NCBI GenBank assembly: GCA_000004695.1
Contig: CM000151.3
Coordinates: 3,104,001-3,168,000, forward strand
Direction: 5' to 3'
DNA from: Dictyostelium discoideum
Lineage: Eukaryota
DNA length: 64,000 bases
Of the stretch, positions 15,857 through 33,068 are shown piece after piece. The notes below the pieces were generated by a model. It ran no database searches, had not been told where the DNA came from, and saw only the letters and a program-made list of their open reading frames with translations. Position 1 is the stretch's first letter. Every line of letters starts with the position of its first letter. The translations under genes and the position numbers were made by a program.

Positions 15857-18800
15857 TTGCACACTAATATGGATAGCAATGAGAGTGATGTCTCTCAATT
15901 AAATAAATCAAAGAATGAAGCAAATAATAATAATAATGAAAAACAAAATGATAATAAAAATATAGAGCAAACTCAAAAAGAAGAAATTGCACCAAAAACA
16001 GAAACTAATAAACAAAATTTAAATAATAGCAATGAAAACAATAATTCAATTAGTCTCGAAGCTAAACACCTTGAGAGTGAAACAAAAAATAATAATGAAA
16101 AACAAAATGATAATAAAAATATAGAACAAACTCAAAAAGAAGAGGTTGTACCAAAAACAGAAACTAATAAACTAAATGTAAATAATAGCTATGAAAACAA
16201 TAATTCAATTAGTCCCGAAACCAAAAACCTTATTTCCACCATTGTAAATATATCTAGTAGTAATCCTGTAGTACATGCAGATCAAAATAGTAAACCCAAT
16301 ATTGAAAAAAATACTCATAATACAACTCAAGCTGTAGTAAACGCATCAAATAATACAACTCGTTTGATTGGGGAAGTATTAGATAAAAATAAAAATAATA
16401 ATAATAATAATAATAATAATAATAATAATAATAATAATAATAATAATAATAATAATAATAATAATAATAATAATAATAATAATAATAATAATAATAATAA
16501 TAATAATAATAATAATAATAATAATAATAATAATAATAATAATAATAATAATAATAATAGCAATAATAACAGCAATAATAATGATAATAAAACTAGTACA
16601 ACCACAACAACCAATAATAAAAAATATTTATTAGAGGATCCGAATAATTTTCGTGCCATAGTAAAAATTAGTTTGGGCTATTTACATAACAAAGAAAAAT
16701 CAGCTTGGGCGAACATAGAGCAAGAGAAACAAAAAGGTTTTTTTTCATCATTAATTAGTTTTTTTATTCCAGATCATTTCTTTGATCCTATAGACAAAGA
16801 TTGGATAAAAAATCAACAAAAGAAATCAAAAGTTCAATTCTTGGATAAACAATTACATAAGGAAAATCCGCATAGATCTATGTGGTATTACATTGTTCAC
16901 CATGGGTACAGTATAAAGAGTTTATTTTCACTTTAGTTATTAAAGAGTTTAATAAATATATATATATACTAATTTAACAAAAATATTTTTTAAAGAGAGT
17001 TTGAACAGGATACAGGCGATATTCTTTTGGAGTTATCAGAATCATTAAATTCATCGGGTATTCCATTGATGCCATATTCCATTATAGCAGTAAAAGAAAC
17101 TTATACCACATTCTTCAATACTCTCACTGGAAATGAAAGAACAAATATAGATTTAATTTTTTATTTCACTCTTAGTTATCCTTATGTTTTAACAAGTGCA
17201 TATATCAAAATATTGCTTTCTTATTACTTTATTTCCGATAAATATCAAAAAACAAAGTTTATGGATATGTTTTCTCATATTCCTGATAATCATCAAGCTC
17301 TTTTTGTTAAATACGTTACTAGATTTTTAAAAGATAACCCTGATATTACAATATTCCAATTTTTCTTTGAACTTTTATCAAGTTGTAGACCTGTAAATGG
17401 TAAAGGACCGGTTTTCAATGATTTAAAGAGTATAACCAATGATGAAGAAGGAACATATTCAGACCCTTTTAAGAGTTTGTTAGTTGCTTTCCAAACTCAA
17501 AAGTTAAAGCATTTATATGTAAACGAAAAGGCTAAAGCAATCGTTACTAAATTGTTTGCTACATACCCTACGCTATATCAAGTTTTAAGAGATTTTCAAG
17601 AGTATTCAAAAGTTGTTGAATCCTTAGATTTAAGTTATCTTTCTGATAGTGAATTTTTAAAGTAACAATATGATATATATATATAAATGTTTATATTTTT
17701 AGTAATATTACTAATTCTTTTTTTTTCTTCTTCTTCTTCTCCTTCTTCTTCTTCTCCTTCTTCTTATTAATTTATTTAGGTCATTAGAATTTTTAGGTGC
17801 TCAGCCAGAGGATTTTAACAATCAAATATACAAAAGAGGTAAAAAAGATTTTTTGATAAGTTTGTTTGAACTCAATGGTAAAAATGCAAATGTTTGTCAA
17901 AGATATGCAATGGAGAAGATAAATAGAGTTTTGGATTTGTTTGCTACATTTTCAATATTGCACCCAGACCATCAATACCTTGAATTTGCTCCAACCTCAT
18001 TGTCTTATTACTATGAACCATTAATTTCAGATTTGGCCAATATTGAGAGTTCTTTTGAATTCGAAAGAGAAAAGTTAAAAAAAAATTATTCACAATTCTA
18101 TAAATTATGCGAACATATCATTTTTGAAATTACAAAGAAAGCTTCACCACATCAAAACTTTTTCAACTTTTTCTCTTTAAGAGCCACAAGTCTACCTCTT
18201 TCCCTTTCTATTTTAGCAAATTATTGCCTAAAGAATGCATTGGATCAGGTATCTAAAAACAGTGATACTACTTACGCTCAAAATCTTATTTATCGTTTTA
18301 ATAATTTAAAAACTTTGGAATGGGACGAACAAATGGTTGAATTTATTCAAACTAAAGAGATTGTAAGTTTTTTTTTTTTTTTTTCAGAGTATATGTGCGA
18401 AATCCAATTAATTTTTTTTTTTTATTAAAATTTAACATAATAGATTAAAGAAAAATTTATAGAGATAGCTAATAAGTATTCTAAGGAAATTGTAAAGTAT
18501 AAAAAAGATTATGATACTTTAAAAGTAAATTTAGAGCTTTATTTCAACCACCAAGGTTTGATGGATTCAGATCAACTTATTAAAGAATTTAGAGAATATT
18601 CAAATGGAATTGAAAGATATAAAAAATTAGAGAATTACTTAAATCAAGAATTTGGTTTCAATAAATTAGTGAGTGAAGGTACTCATTGCTCACCAAAAGA
18701 TACTGTGAAAAGTTATCTTAAACATATTCGTCAAACAAAGATTGATAATTTCAAAACACCATTAAATGATGAATCCATTAAATTTATGTTATATTTCATT

Positions 18801-30800: not shown

Positions 30801-33068
30801 AATAATAATAATAATGATAATAATAATAATATTGAATTAATGAGTGATGATGTTTTTGAATCATTTAAATTAGATTTTGCTATTAAAGATTTATTACCAG
30901 TTATTAATGTAAATCAAGTATTATCACTATGTGATATATTTATAAATAGTTACCTTGGATTTAGATATTATTATAGTTCAATTATTCCTGACCCAGTTCA
31001 ACCAAACAATGACTATTTAATTCAATTTAAATCAATTTCAGAGAGTATCTTAAAGGATTGTGAATTTGATATTCGAGAACGTTCAATTCTTTGGAAAGAT
31101 TATTTAGGTAAAATCATTCAAAAAGCATCTTCTGAAGATTCAAAGAGAATTGCAATATCCATTCAACCAGATTTACCACTTTTACATTTAATTAATAAAT
31201 TCCAATTACGTGATATCAAAGAACCTTCAACCAATTTATCAATCTTTACTTTTGTTTTACCAAGTATGACTTCAAGTTATTATGCAACATTTATGGGTAC
31301 ACTTCAAGAAACTCTAACAGTTTTACACATTCAATTGGATGAAATTGGTGAAGTTACAAATGATAAAAATAGTAGATTTGGTAGTGGTGGTGGTGGTGGT
31401 TTAATCATTTTCAAAGAATTAACAATTGATGATTTAAATGGCACTACTAAAAAGAAATTTTTCAATCCAAGAGCTTCAACCCCTTCACAATCTCAAGATA
31501 ATAGATCCATTAATCCAATGTTTAAAAAAGCTGATCAAAATTTGAAACTTAAAGAATTAGTATCATACAATAATGAATATCTAACTAAAAATGTTAAAGT
31601 TATTAGTAATGATGGAAATGATAAAGAAGAGGATGAATCATTAATTAAAACTATGTTAATATTAAAGGATCATACTATCAAAACATCATCATCATCATCG
31701 TCAATACCAATCTTTGCTACGAGTTTATTAGAATGGATAAGATTCAATTTAATTGATTTATTAAATATTGAAGATGTTAAATTCTCTTTCTCTTTATATA
31801 CAGAGTTACAACATTTCAAATCGATTTCAAGTAAAAAATTAAAAGAACCATTCATAGTCGATACTTTATTTAAGGAATTCATTGAAGCAAATGATGAATT
31901 AATGGAATTATTAAATTCAACTCCATCTTCATCCTTCTTATCACCTTCAAAGATTTTAGCTTTACTTTTACAATCAATTAAAAAAATATCATCATCCATA
32001 TTCACTCCTCTCACTGGTAGTTGTCAACATATATGTAATGTTTGTAAGAAATTAATAAAACCAAATCTTCAACAATTTATTTTGGACTTTACTGTAAACA
32101 TTGATTCAAATAATATCGAAGAGAATATTGCCAACACACTCTACTCTCAAAATAATTCAATTGAGCAATGTAAAAATTGTAATAAACAAGTTCAACGTAA
32201 AACAGTTTTAATTAGCTCACCATCTCATCTTTTAGTTTCTGTAAATAGAATTAAAAATGGTGAACCAACTTTCAAACCTATCGATTTCCCAAAATTCATT
32301 AAAATTGGTAATTCATTTGAAATTCAAAATGATGATGGTAGTGGTGGTGATGATTTAACCTATGTATTAGAATCTGTGCTAATGTCAAATGGAAATCATA
32401 GTTCAATTCATATTAATTCCTCAGATGACAATGAAAATGCAAGCATTAGATGTTCAACCAATGATCCAGTATCATTCATTAACAGAAGTGAAAATTTAGA
32501 GGTTGAAAAAAGAACTTCAATTTTATTCATTTACAAACAATCAACTCTAAAACAAGAAAAAGAAGATGAAGTTTTAGTTGAAAATCAAATGAATATTGAC
32601 AATAATGATTTCTCAAATGAAGATGCTATTACTACCTCAACTACTACAACTACTACCACCACTACTACTTCTACTTCAGAAGATGAACAACAAAAACAAC
32701 AACAACAACAGCAACAACAACAACAACAACAACAACAACAACAACAAAATGAAATTGATGAAACAATGGATGAGTCTCAAGAAACTGAACCTGAAAATAT
32801 TAAAATTAAAATTGATCCAACAAACTCTGCCAAATTGACAAGAGTTGAGATTGTTGATAATCCTGAATTAAATGACAGTTTTTTATCTTGGTTTATTAAT
32901 ATCCCACTTTCTCCTACTCAAAGAACTGCAATTGCCAAAGTATTTGAAGAAAATTCAATCTCAAATTTCGAAACTGCTTTTTCAATCACTGAATATGAAT
33001 GGAAAGATTTAATTAAAAAAGTAGGAGACAGGGCTCTTTTCTTGAGATATTTAGGTTATTTTGATTAA
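15857..33068 (+). CDS. Giant gene of about 5,600 codons. Exons 15857..16905, 16996..17662, 17780..18363, 18444..33068. It encodes a multi-AAA+/P-loop ATPase of unknown family: an N-terminal Asn-rich repeat region, three P-loop modules, a long helical body and a C-terminal Cys cluster.
   Basis: The 14.5-kb ORF (18558..33068) is continuous with upstream ORFs through introns GTACAG..AAG, GTAACA..TTTAG and GTAAGT..ATAG, all keeping frame. Walker A motifs are LLSGEFGTGKTLY (about 20868), ILKGDTGTGKSFSF (about 21995) and LLVVGPPGCSKTISF (about 23325). Walker B-type motifs are IFVIFIDEFNTAP..IIGAMNP and SVVFLDEAGLVDE..VILSNK. The junction of exons 1 and 2 is the least certain. Confidence 0.65.
15932..16232 (+). 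repeat. Two tandem copies of a 159-bp (53-codon) coding repeat in exon 1 of the giant gene.
   Basis: The unit aataatgaaaaacaaaatgataataaaaatatagagcaaactcaaaaagaag... recurs at 15932 and 16091 with a few substitutions (NNNEKQNDNKNIEQTQKEE[IA/VV]PKTETNK...). Confidence 0.8.
16393..16560 (+). repeat. Pure (AAT)n microsatellite of about 56 units, encoding a poly-Asn run of about 70 residues inside the giant gene.
   Basis: Read directly from the sequence. It yields mirror ORFs on the other strand (poly-Leu, 16327..16659), which are artefacts. Confidence 0.95.

Follow-up and report, generated by a model that had tools for sequence, protein, structure and literature searches.

An RNF213-family giant protein of Dictyostelium discoideum that lacks RING and RZ fingers and carries a predicted non-catalytic USP-fold domain

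Introduction

RNF213 (mysterin) is a giant AAA+ E3 ubiquitin ligase of cell-autonomous immunity, encoded by the main Moyamoya disease susceptibility gene, and a protein of both human immunity and stroke risk. Under intense study, it forms a coat on bacteria, viruses and parasites, attaches ubiquitin to lipopolysaccharide and senses ATP. In this monomeric protein a helical N-arm and a linker lead into a ring of six AAA units that resembles the ring of dynein; a hinge, a large helical 'E3' scaffold (with back, shell and core parts) and a C-terminal domain (CTD) follow. Here we describe a gene of Dictyostelium discoideum located on a stretch of 64,000 nucleotides (contig CM000151.3 of assembly GCA_000004695.1, positions 3,104,001 to 3,168,000 of the forward strand; hereafter the window, whose own numbering is used throughout). 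Its predicted product of 5,636 residues is, close to certainly on sequence comparison, a member of the RNF213 family. It shows neither a RING nor an RZ finger and ends in a domain predicted to adopt the fold of a ubiquitin-specific protease (USP; peptidase family C19).

In mouse RNF213 the N-arm spans residues 1-1290, the linker extends to 1774, the AAA core to 3405, the hinge to 3588 and the E3 module to 4926, after which comes the CTD; the protein was described as conserved in vertebrates (PMC7311170). Only AAA2-4 are recognised by HHpred, AAA2 binds ATP as a 'molecular glue' and is devoid of Walker B and sensor I, and the RING is dispensable for activity (PMC7311170). Zinc is held in the RZ finger by C4451, H4455, C4471 and C4474; the loop between them carries C4462, which serves as nucleophile in transthiolation, and mutation of C4462 or deletion of RZ abolishes activity (PMC12075652). 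The E3 module is switched on when ATP binds the AAA core, and the ubiquitin-loaded E2 (E2~Ub) is docked by the CTD (PMC12075652).

We propose, with a rough probability of 0.6, that the Dictyostelium protein acts as an ATP-regulated RNF213-type scaffold whose output would be ubiquitin binding and not ligation. This reading draws on sequence comparison, on predicted structure and on analogy with RNF213, and its weakest step is the role of 'ubiquitin reader'. A preliminary description of the window, made from the sequence alone, had rightly placed the product among giant proteins with concatenated AAA+ modules, of the dynein/midasin/RNF213 type, with a scaffold-like remainder. Its class assignment stands; what escaped it was the family, the disappearance of RING and RZ, and the USP-fold domain at the C-terminus.

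Results

Membership of the RNF213 family

Although the preliminary description had found no obvious family, a plain phmmer search of the PDB matched about 790 residues of the product directly to solved RNF213 structures, with E-values of 4e-46 for human RNF213 (8s24_A, residues 2491-3276) and 1e-38 for mouse RNF213 (6tay). The best named database matches were likewise animal RNF213 or rnf213-alpha-like proteins, together with giant proteins of Naegleria, a diatom and Paratrimastix. The homologues named RNF213 carry Pfam RZ and RING domains. Single-sequence searches did not reach animal RNF213 beyond the AAA core. Alignment of profiles by hhalign covered the regions on either side, giving the following map.

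22410..24773, + strand: residues 2085-2872, direct match to solved RNF213 structures, from the AAA3 Walker B across AAA4 and into the AAA units that follow (phmmer against the PDB)
18492..22667, + strand: residues 779-2170, distal N-arm, linker and AAA1-AAA3, collinear with animal RNF213 (hhalign)
24873..31307, + strand: residues 2906-5050, remainder of the AAA ring, hinge, E3 scaffold and CTD, with no inserted RING (hhalign)

The upstream region aligned over 1,178 columns (probability 99.1%, E 1e-18). Downstream, a 24-sequence family alignment compared with a 12-sequence animal RNF213 alignment gave a single alignment of 1,607 columns, with the same probability and E-value (99.1%, 1e-18), which ran from position 7 to position 1825 of the 1843 template positions. 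An earlier four-sequence comparison of the E3 region had given an E-value of 5e-5. Posterior confidence was moderate, put at 3-5 out of 9 for residues 779-2170; mean values per bin were 2.9-7.8 out of 9 upstream and 1.4-6.4 out of 9 downstream, falling to about 3 near the RZ site.

Read against the mouse boundaries, the window protein would span the distal N-arm through to the CTD. It shares with vertebrate RNF213 a common collinear layout of distal N-arm and linker, six-unit AAA ring, hinge, E3 scaffold and CTD; sequence identity is only about 25% within the AAA core and about 14% outside it. The two are similar in size (5,636 residues as compared with 5,148-5,207), and unlike RNF213 the window protein shows no CBM20 or other Pfam domain at its N-terminus. 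The earlier view that the protein is only distantly related to the midasin/RNF213 class is therefore not upheld, given the collinearity with animal RNF213 over residues 779-5050 and the phmmer E-value of 4e-46.

Neither midasin nor dynein heavy chain appeared among the PDB or homologue matches, and a midasin or dynein identity was ruled out on this ground. The likeness to these proteins lies in the single-chain ring of non-equivalent AAA units and in weak Pfam AAA_7 and AAA_5 matches. Unlike them, the window protein has no microtubule-binding stalk or MIDAS domain, and its predicted active sites are AAA3 and AAA4, not AAA1.

Nucleotide sites of the AAA+ core

The AAA motifs were assigned by alignment with 11 homologues, as follows.

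20871..20894, + strand: AAA2 Walker A GEFGTGKT, residue 1572 (K1578), aligned with animal RNF213 AAA2 G.GKS
21051..21074, + strand: AAA2 strand equivalent to Walker B, VLLHINLS, residue 1632, without acidic pair, aligned with animal FHIDI
21996..22019, + strand: AAA3 Walker A GDTGTGKS, residue 1947 (K1953), aligned with animal GETGCGKT
22512..22532, + strand: AAA3 Walker B IFIDEFN, residue 2119 (D2122, E2123), from the phmmer match and the homologue alignment
22623..22643, + strand: AAA3 sensor-1 strand IIGAMNP (GAMNP at residue 2156), aligned with animal IIAACNP
23325..23348, + strand: AAA4 Walker A GPPGCSKT, residue 2390 (K2396), aligned with animal GKPGSSKS
23547..23570, + strand: AAA4 Walker B VVFLDEAG, residue 2464 (D2468, E2469), from the phmmer match and the homologue alignment
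23667..23711, + strand: AAA4 sensor-1 strand (ILSN, residue 2504) and conserved LDAAKTNR, aligned with animal GISNWALDPAKMNR

The sequence alignment showed that the three P-loops correspond to RNF213 AAA2, AAA3 and AAA4. By the same comparison, AAA2 keeps its Walker A, and so should be able to bind nucleotide, and has no Walker B; in AAA3 and AAA4, Walker A, Walker B and sensor 1 are all retained. This is the nucleotide-site pattern of RNF213 itself. Three recognisable P-loops, a feature that the preliminary description had called rarely characterised in proteins of this size, are thus no oddity but a signature of the RNF213 family, since the published AAA2-4 pattern is identical (PMC7311170).

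The motifs themselves had been correctly located. The three Walker A motifs start at nucleotides 20871, 21996 and 23325, with spacings of 375 residues (1572 to 1947) and 443 residues (1947 to 2390), and the sensor-like motifs GAMNP (2156) and ILSN (2504) are present. A hydrophobic stretch ending in DE, which had been reported after each P-loop, was found after the second (IFIDEFN) and third (VVFLDEAG), but not after the first (VLLHINLS). Pfam searches with the complete protein and with exons 1-3 returned weak generic AAA matches only (AAA_7, E 9e-7; AAA_5, E 9e-4), and most of the protein was left without a Pfam domain.

Loss of the RING and RZ fingers

Patterns for the C3HC4 RING and for RZ (Pfam PF20173) found both fingers in animal sequences but neither in the window protein nor in about 40 giant family members. 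At the RING position, which belongs to the E3-back subdomain in RNF213, the hhalign alignment contained no insertion. Across all 5,636 residues there are only two CxxC motifs, both in the C-terminal USP-fold domain and none in the E3 region, so that an RZ finger is excluded there regardless of alignment. What occupies the RZ site is a short vestige.

28992..29036, + strand: RZ-finger vestige KYFPGSRGGQLVDCN, residues 4279-4293, with C4292 as sole remaining ligand (family and profile alignment)

In the profile alignment, mouse C4451, H4455, C4471 and C4474 correspond to F4281, S4284, L4289 and C4292, and the 11-residue loop that holds mouse C4462 is deleted. Unlike RNF213, then, the window protein has no RING, and its RZ is a stub without nucleophile loop and without three of the four zinc ligands. 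Judged from these alignments, RZ-type ligase chemistry has likely been lost; as the loop with the transthiolation nucleophile is deleted, the protein would not ligate ubiquitin by the RZ route. Several rnf213-like paralogues of animals have no RING either.

A DC[GN] cysteine is kept at the lost RZ site from dictyostelids to Naegleria (P0001, P0002, P0003 and about 15 other members). In the window protein this is C4292, the counterpart of mouse zinc ligand C4474.

The protein might still be a ubiquitin or ubiquitin-like E3, in which scaffold and CTD dock E2~Ub and ubiquitin is passed on by another nucleophile, with C4292 as the candidate, or discharged directly from the E2. Such an enzyme could draw on the retained scaffold and CTD, collinear with RNF213, and on the DC[GN] cysteine kept from dictyostelids to Naegleria and in many members; the loss of the RING says little, because RNF213 is active without it (PMC7311170). 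We nevertheless consider residual ligase activity unlikely. Three of the four zinc ligands are replaced, C4292 sits at a zinc-ligand position (C4474) and not at that of the nucleophile, and the loop deleted here is that of C4462, whose mutation in the mouse, like deletion of RZ, abolishes activity (PMC12075652).

A USP-fold domain behind the RNF213 homology

About 590 residues follow the end of the RNF213 homology near residue 5050. These residues are extra to RNF213 and comprise a USP-fold domain, predicted to be a pseudo-deubiquitinase, and a helical module.

31683..32567, + strand: USP-fold domain, residues 5176-5470, appended after the RNF213 C-terminus, with S5189 at the inferred catalytic Cys and S5410 at the catalytic His
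32022..32189, + strand: zinc-ribbon cysteines of the USP fingers, C5293-x2-C5296 and C5338-x2-C5341, in columns conserved in the family
32835..33065, + strand: terminal helical module of about 75 residues (5560-5636), conserved in the family in one to three tandem copies (jackhmmer)

A USP-like pattern was first spotted here by eye, as CxxC...CxxC, a strand resembling P.vL.i.l.R and a C-terminal ILFIYKQ. Several searches with the C-terminal region were negative: Pfam UCH (PF00443) did not match the domain even at an E-value of 10, a word-indexed database search with 421 residues of the region found nothing, and a two-sequence profile of the domain had no match in the PDB. AlphaFold2 run on three sequences gave an unusable model, with a predicted local distance difference test score (pLDDT) of 36. 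Comparison by hhalign with the USP domain of relative P0002, which carries a canonical Pfam UCH at the same position (E 1e-20), reached a probability of 0.8%, and an E-value of 0.87 with 15 sequences; this weakness reflects a template that consisted of a single sequence.

The fold was resolved once a profile search of the full library had yielded dictyostelid paralogues, and hence a 15-sequence alignment; within the family, jackhmmer detected the domain in 17 members. Searched against the PDB, the 15-sequence profile matched USP28 (E 1e-4), USP39 (1.4e-3) and USP7 (2.9e-3), as well as USP25 and USP9X. AlphaFold2 with the same alignment predicted residues 5176-5470 at a pLDDT of 86.9 and a predicted template-modelling score of 0.87. 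The 50 top Foldseek hits of this model were USP catalytic domains only, at E-values near 1e-12, probability 1.0 and template-modelling scores of about 0.6. The model thus showed a thumb-palm-fingers USP fold, and the cysteines of the zinc ribbon are intact. The preliminary description had seen no other catalytic signature in the protein, which is literally true, but it overlooked this complete domain.

The family alignment contains the USP-like blocks in canonical order and spacing. In the model, the first helix has the Cys-box block HC[LF]xNW[LI]R at its N-terminus, and PGxFLxxLL stands at the position of the QQD box; then come the two CxxC pairs, PQYLFIxIxR, the His box YxLHSVLCHED and NCVLLIY. 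The Cys column of the family is a serine (S5189) in the window protein, and sequence inspection found no other cysteine near the N-terminus of helix 1. In the His box, explicit profile alignment pairs YVLESVLMSNG of the window protein with YRLHAVLVHEG of USP28 and places S5410 at the catalytic histidine.

The state of this dyad varies among the 15 aligned members. Cys and His are both kept in 4/15, Cys alone in 6/15 and neither in 5/15, and His alone occurs in 0/15, a pattern that suggests, from the alignment, repeated and ordered loss of catalysis. The window protein (Ser, Ser) and its closest relative P0031 (Arg, Leu) belong to the group with neither residue; the four that keep the pair are P0032, P0033 and P0048 of Acytostelium subglobosum and P0026 of Synstelium.

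The domain resembles USP39/Sad1 and PAN2/USP52 in that it would be a non-catalytic USP module inside a larger machine. Unlike these, it is fused to an RNF213-type AAA+ scaffold and retains its zinc ribbon, and we found no specific sequence relationship between it and the USP39/Sad1 or PAN2 subfamily.

That the domain is nonetheless active, as an ATP-regulated deubiquitinase or esterase using a cysteine from a misassigned column or a serine-based chemistry, appears quite unlikely. The explicit USP28 alignment gives serine at the catalytic His, both the window protein and P0031 are devoid of the residues conserved in the family at these positions, Pfam UCH does not match at E 10, and helix 1 offers no alternative cysteine at its N-terminus. 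These points have to be set against a complete and confidently predicted fold with its zinc ribbon intact, a Cys-His pair in 4/15 relatives and a canonical UCH in P0002, and against the fact that the Cys column was inferred and not superposed.

The terminal module resembles a SAM domain, but none of four comparisons reached significance. Pfam did not match it in the window protein and gave SAM_1 at E 0.03 in relative P0001; profiles of the module searched against the PDB gave the SAM domains of STE11 (E 0.87) and BICC1 (E 0.23), neither of them significant. By hhalign, its match to the true SAM of the distant member P0109 had a probability of 2%, and the terminal SAM of P0109 may be regarded as an analogue by position. 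In P0109 itself, the C-terminal end is a true Pfam SAM_1 (E 3e-9).

Distribution of the family and exchange of modules

A profile of the E3 region made from four protist sequences was searched against 1.84 billion representatives and found 153 relatives, about 40 of them proteins of 2,400-5,800 residues. Across the searches, relatives occurred in at least seven dictyostelid species and also in Naegleria, a diatom, Paratrimastix, a choanoflagellate and animals; the protein is no orphan, and in that sense not lineage-specific as had been supposed. Named relatives are entered as 'hypothetical protein' or as 'AAA+ ATPase domain-containing protein' in every case, and all are uncharacterised. In a collection of 5.8 billion proteins there was no identical or near-identical protein, the best matches being 45-48% identical.

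The closest relative is KAF2070684.1 (CYY_007999) of Polysphondylium violaceum, with 48% identity in the AAA core; it too has lost both the Cys and the His position. This protein, XP_020433088.1 of Heterostelium album (PPL_06205), XP_012754610.1 of A. subglobosum and KYQ93117.1 of Tieghemostelium lacteum share the architecture of the window protein from end to end: their E3 scaffold is without RZ, and the USP-fold domain and the terminal helical module follow at the C-terminus. Some dictyostelid paralogues differ, in that four keep the Cys-His pair and, to judge from sequence, may be active, and some have two or three copies of the terminal module.

Every dictyostelid genome sampled holds more than one copy, among them at least three in H. 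album (P0029, P0030, P0034), at least five in A. subglobosum (P0032, P0033, P0036, P0039, P0048) and at least three in T. lacteum (P0027, P0043, P0052). Two of the A. subglobosum copies are four loci apart (SAMD00019534_056650 and _056690), and KYQ93117 and KYQ93119 of T. lacteum are adjacent by accession number. Further members occur in Cavenderia fasciculata, Synstelium polycarpum (at least two) and another EukProt species, and more distant ones in Naegleria and the choanoflagellate Mylnosiga. These are counts of copies and not assignments of orthology to the window gene. A second paralogue within the window was ruled out, as homologues match 18858-30710 only.

More distant RNF213-like proteins (P0002, P0004, P0109, P0104) carry differing C-terminal or internal modules. 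P0002, a metagenome protein from ENA, has canonical UCH and SH3 domains, the RNF213-like protein of the diatom Seminavis has VWA domains, and the Mylnosiga protein contains a Cys-rich stretch judged USP-like by eye only. This variety suggests that modules have been swapped on a common RNF213-like chassis.

In the literature searched, we found no description of an amoebal RNF213 relative or of an RNF213-USP fusion. A protein of the RNF213 family without RZ and RING that is fused to a pseudo-deubiquitinase, as predicted here from sequence and modelled structure, was not found described there.

Gene structure and coding capacity

The preliminary description had proposed one large exon and three upstream exons for about 5,600 residues, and this was borne out. 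Open reading frames lie on the + strand at 15857-16936, 17027-17665, 17853-18428 and 18558-33068, and the four exons splice in frame through three GT..AG introns into 5,636 codons with a single terminal stop.

15869..16905, + strand: exon 1, residues 1-345 (open reading frame, translation and in-frame splice model)
16906..16995, + strand: intron 1, 90 nucleotides, GTACAG..AAAG, 14% G+C
16996..17661, + strand: exon 2, residues 346-567 (open reading frame and splice model)
17662..17779, + strand: intron 2, 118 nucleotides, GTAACA..TTTAG, 19% G+C, one clean solution
17780..18362, + strand: exon 3, residues 568-762; 14 family members align from residues ~559-620 onward
18363..18443, + strand: intron 3, 81 nucleotides, GTAAGT..ATAG, 16% G+C
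18444..33068, + strand: exon 4, residues 763-5636 plus the stop codon

The introns are thus 90, 118 and 81 nucleotides long with 14-19% G+C. Exon 1 starts at an ATG downstream of a long A/T-rich tract; its 3' end is ambiguous (16905, 16910 or 16919), intron 1 having three in-frame GT/AG options that differ by at most five residues. Exon 2, of low complexity like exon 1, has neither a Pfam match nor homology within the family. At junction 3, 14 relatives align without gaps across residues 762/763, from residues ~559-620 to ~900, and this homology confirmed intron 3 at the level of sequence. The 4,875 codons of the exon 4 frame contain 1 stop, whereas the other two frames contain 354 and 766; with a log10 probability of about -198 for the absence of stops under local base composition, exon 4 is no chance open reading frame. 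A prokaryotic or viral origin was ruled out by the GT..AG introns, the G+C content of about 22% for the whole window and the dictyostelid-type neighbour genes, among which one for a PA14/Dicty_CTDC-repeat protein confirms that the genome is that of a dictyostelid.

Exon 1 contains low-complexity sequence: a direct repeat of about 40 residues (NNNEKQNDNKNIEQTQKEE..PKTETNK..) in two copies (residues ~22-62 and ~76-117) and, at residues 176-230 (~16394-16558), 55 consecutive asparagines. Other homopolymers break into conserved domains: 10 asparagines at residue 1351, 15 at 3026, 17 at 3275 and 32 at 4855, 10 threonines at residue 5495 and 17 glutamines at residue 5514. Such runs are common in the coding sequences of dictyostelids.

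Proposed function

We propose that the protein works as an ATP-regulated scaffold in the following manner. As in RNF213, AAA2 would hold ATP as a structural glue, while binding and hydrolysis of ATP at AAA3 and AAA4 would, by analogy, switch the conformation of scaffold and CTD. The USP-fold domain should cleave no ubiquitin, since serine occupies both catalytic positions. The most likely output would then be ATP-gated binding, by the pseudo-deubiquitinase beside the CTD, of ubiquitin, a ubiquitin-like protein or a ubiquitylated target. Paralogues with the Cys-His pair could be ATP-gated deubiquitinases, the copy in the window acting as non-catalytic reader, decoy or scaffold. That the protein serves in cell-autonomous defence is speculation, suggested only by the function of mammalian RNF213 and by a multi-copy, fast-diverging family in bacterivorous amoebae.

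Several points weigh against this proposal. It draws on sequence, predicted structure and analogy, and its immune part is pure analogy. The pseudo-USPs PAN2 and USP39/Sad1 need not bind ubiquitin, so that 'ubiquitin reader' is one option, and serine at both positions leaves formal room for other hydrolytic chemistry. The Cys column was placed by its distance from the CxxC pairs and the QQD-like box and by the N-terminus of helix 1, and not by residue-level superposition. The correspondence with RNF213 is solid at the level of domains and approximate at that of residues, especially around RZ, and a four-sequence profile of the E3 region had no match in the PDB, in line with a weak homology of the scaffold to vertebrate RNF213. 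Finally, exons 1-2 (residues 1-567) are without homology support, their basis being open frame and splice signals.

A broader version of the proposal is possible but doubtful. It holds that the dictyostelid RNF213-like family might consist of ATP-gated ubiquitin 'erasers and readers' in defence against intracellular bacteria, the RNF213 core controlling a fused USP domain that would be active in some paralogues and a dead sensor or decoy here. RNF213 would then be an ancient chassis whose catalytic head was swapped several times: animals would carry RZ/RING, Amoebozoa and another protist USP, and a diatom VWA.

The dictyostelid family has kept AAA core and E3 scaffold, lost RING and RZ, and gained a USP-fold domain. 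It would represent a natural separation-of-function variant, useful for learning what the scaffold does in the absence of ligase chemistry, in a genetically tractable professional phagocyte suited to the study of an ancestral immune role. It would also be evidence for an exchangeable catalytic head on the RNF213 chassis. For annotation, 'hypothetical proteins' of about 5,000 residues in at least seven dictyostelid species become RNF213-family members with a defined domain map.

A decaying paralogue, a pseudogene in the making whose catalytic losses mean nothing for function, is very unlikely. There are many family copies, some of them tandem duplicates in related species, catalytic residues have gone and long homopolymers have been inserted; yet a stop-free frame of 4,875 codons cannot persist without selection, all catalytic motifs of AAA3 and AAA4 are intact, the USP fold is conserved enough for a prediction at pLDDT 87, and homopolymer runs are ordinary in dictyostelids. 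Least credible of all is the original notion of a lineage-specific giant AAA+ mechanoenzyme or scaffold outside known families and distant from midasin/RNF213, which the generic Pfam AAA_7 and AAA_5 matches and the scarcity of other Pfam domains might have favoured, and which is refuted by the E-value of 4e-46 to RNF213 structures, the collinearity over residues 779-5050, the RNF213-specific AAA2/3/4 pattern and sequence matches that include no midasin or dynein heavy chain.

Neighbouring genes

No tRNA genes were found in the window. At its start, 148-1206 (+ strand) encodes a response-regulator receiver domain (Pfam Response_reg, E 6e-26) and probably represents the 3' portion of a dictyostelid gene for a hybrid histidine kinase or response regulator that starts outside the window or near its edge. 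Two adjacent open reading frames on the - strand, 41931-43088 and 43337-44575, encode one SET domain each, interrupted by a MYND zinc finger; the pair looks like a tandem duplication of a SMYD-like lysine methyltransferase. Five Armadillo repeats and an atypical Arm_3 repeat (E 4e-57), in the pattern of importin-alpha, are encoded at 50735-51994 (+ strand). The open reading frame at 59016-60971 (+ strand) combines a PA14 domain with the Dictyostelium CTDC ('slime mold') repeats that follow it, a dictyostelid-specific type of extracellular protein.

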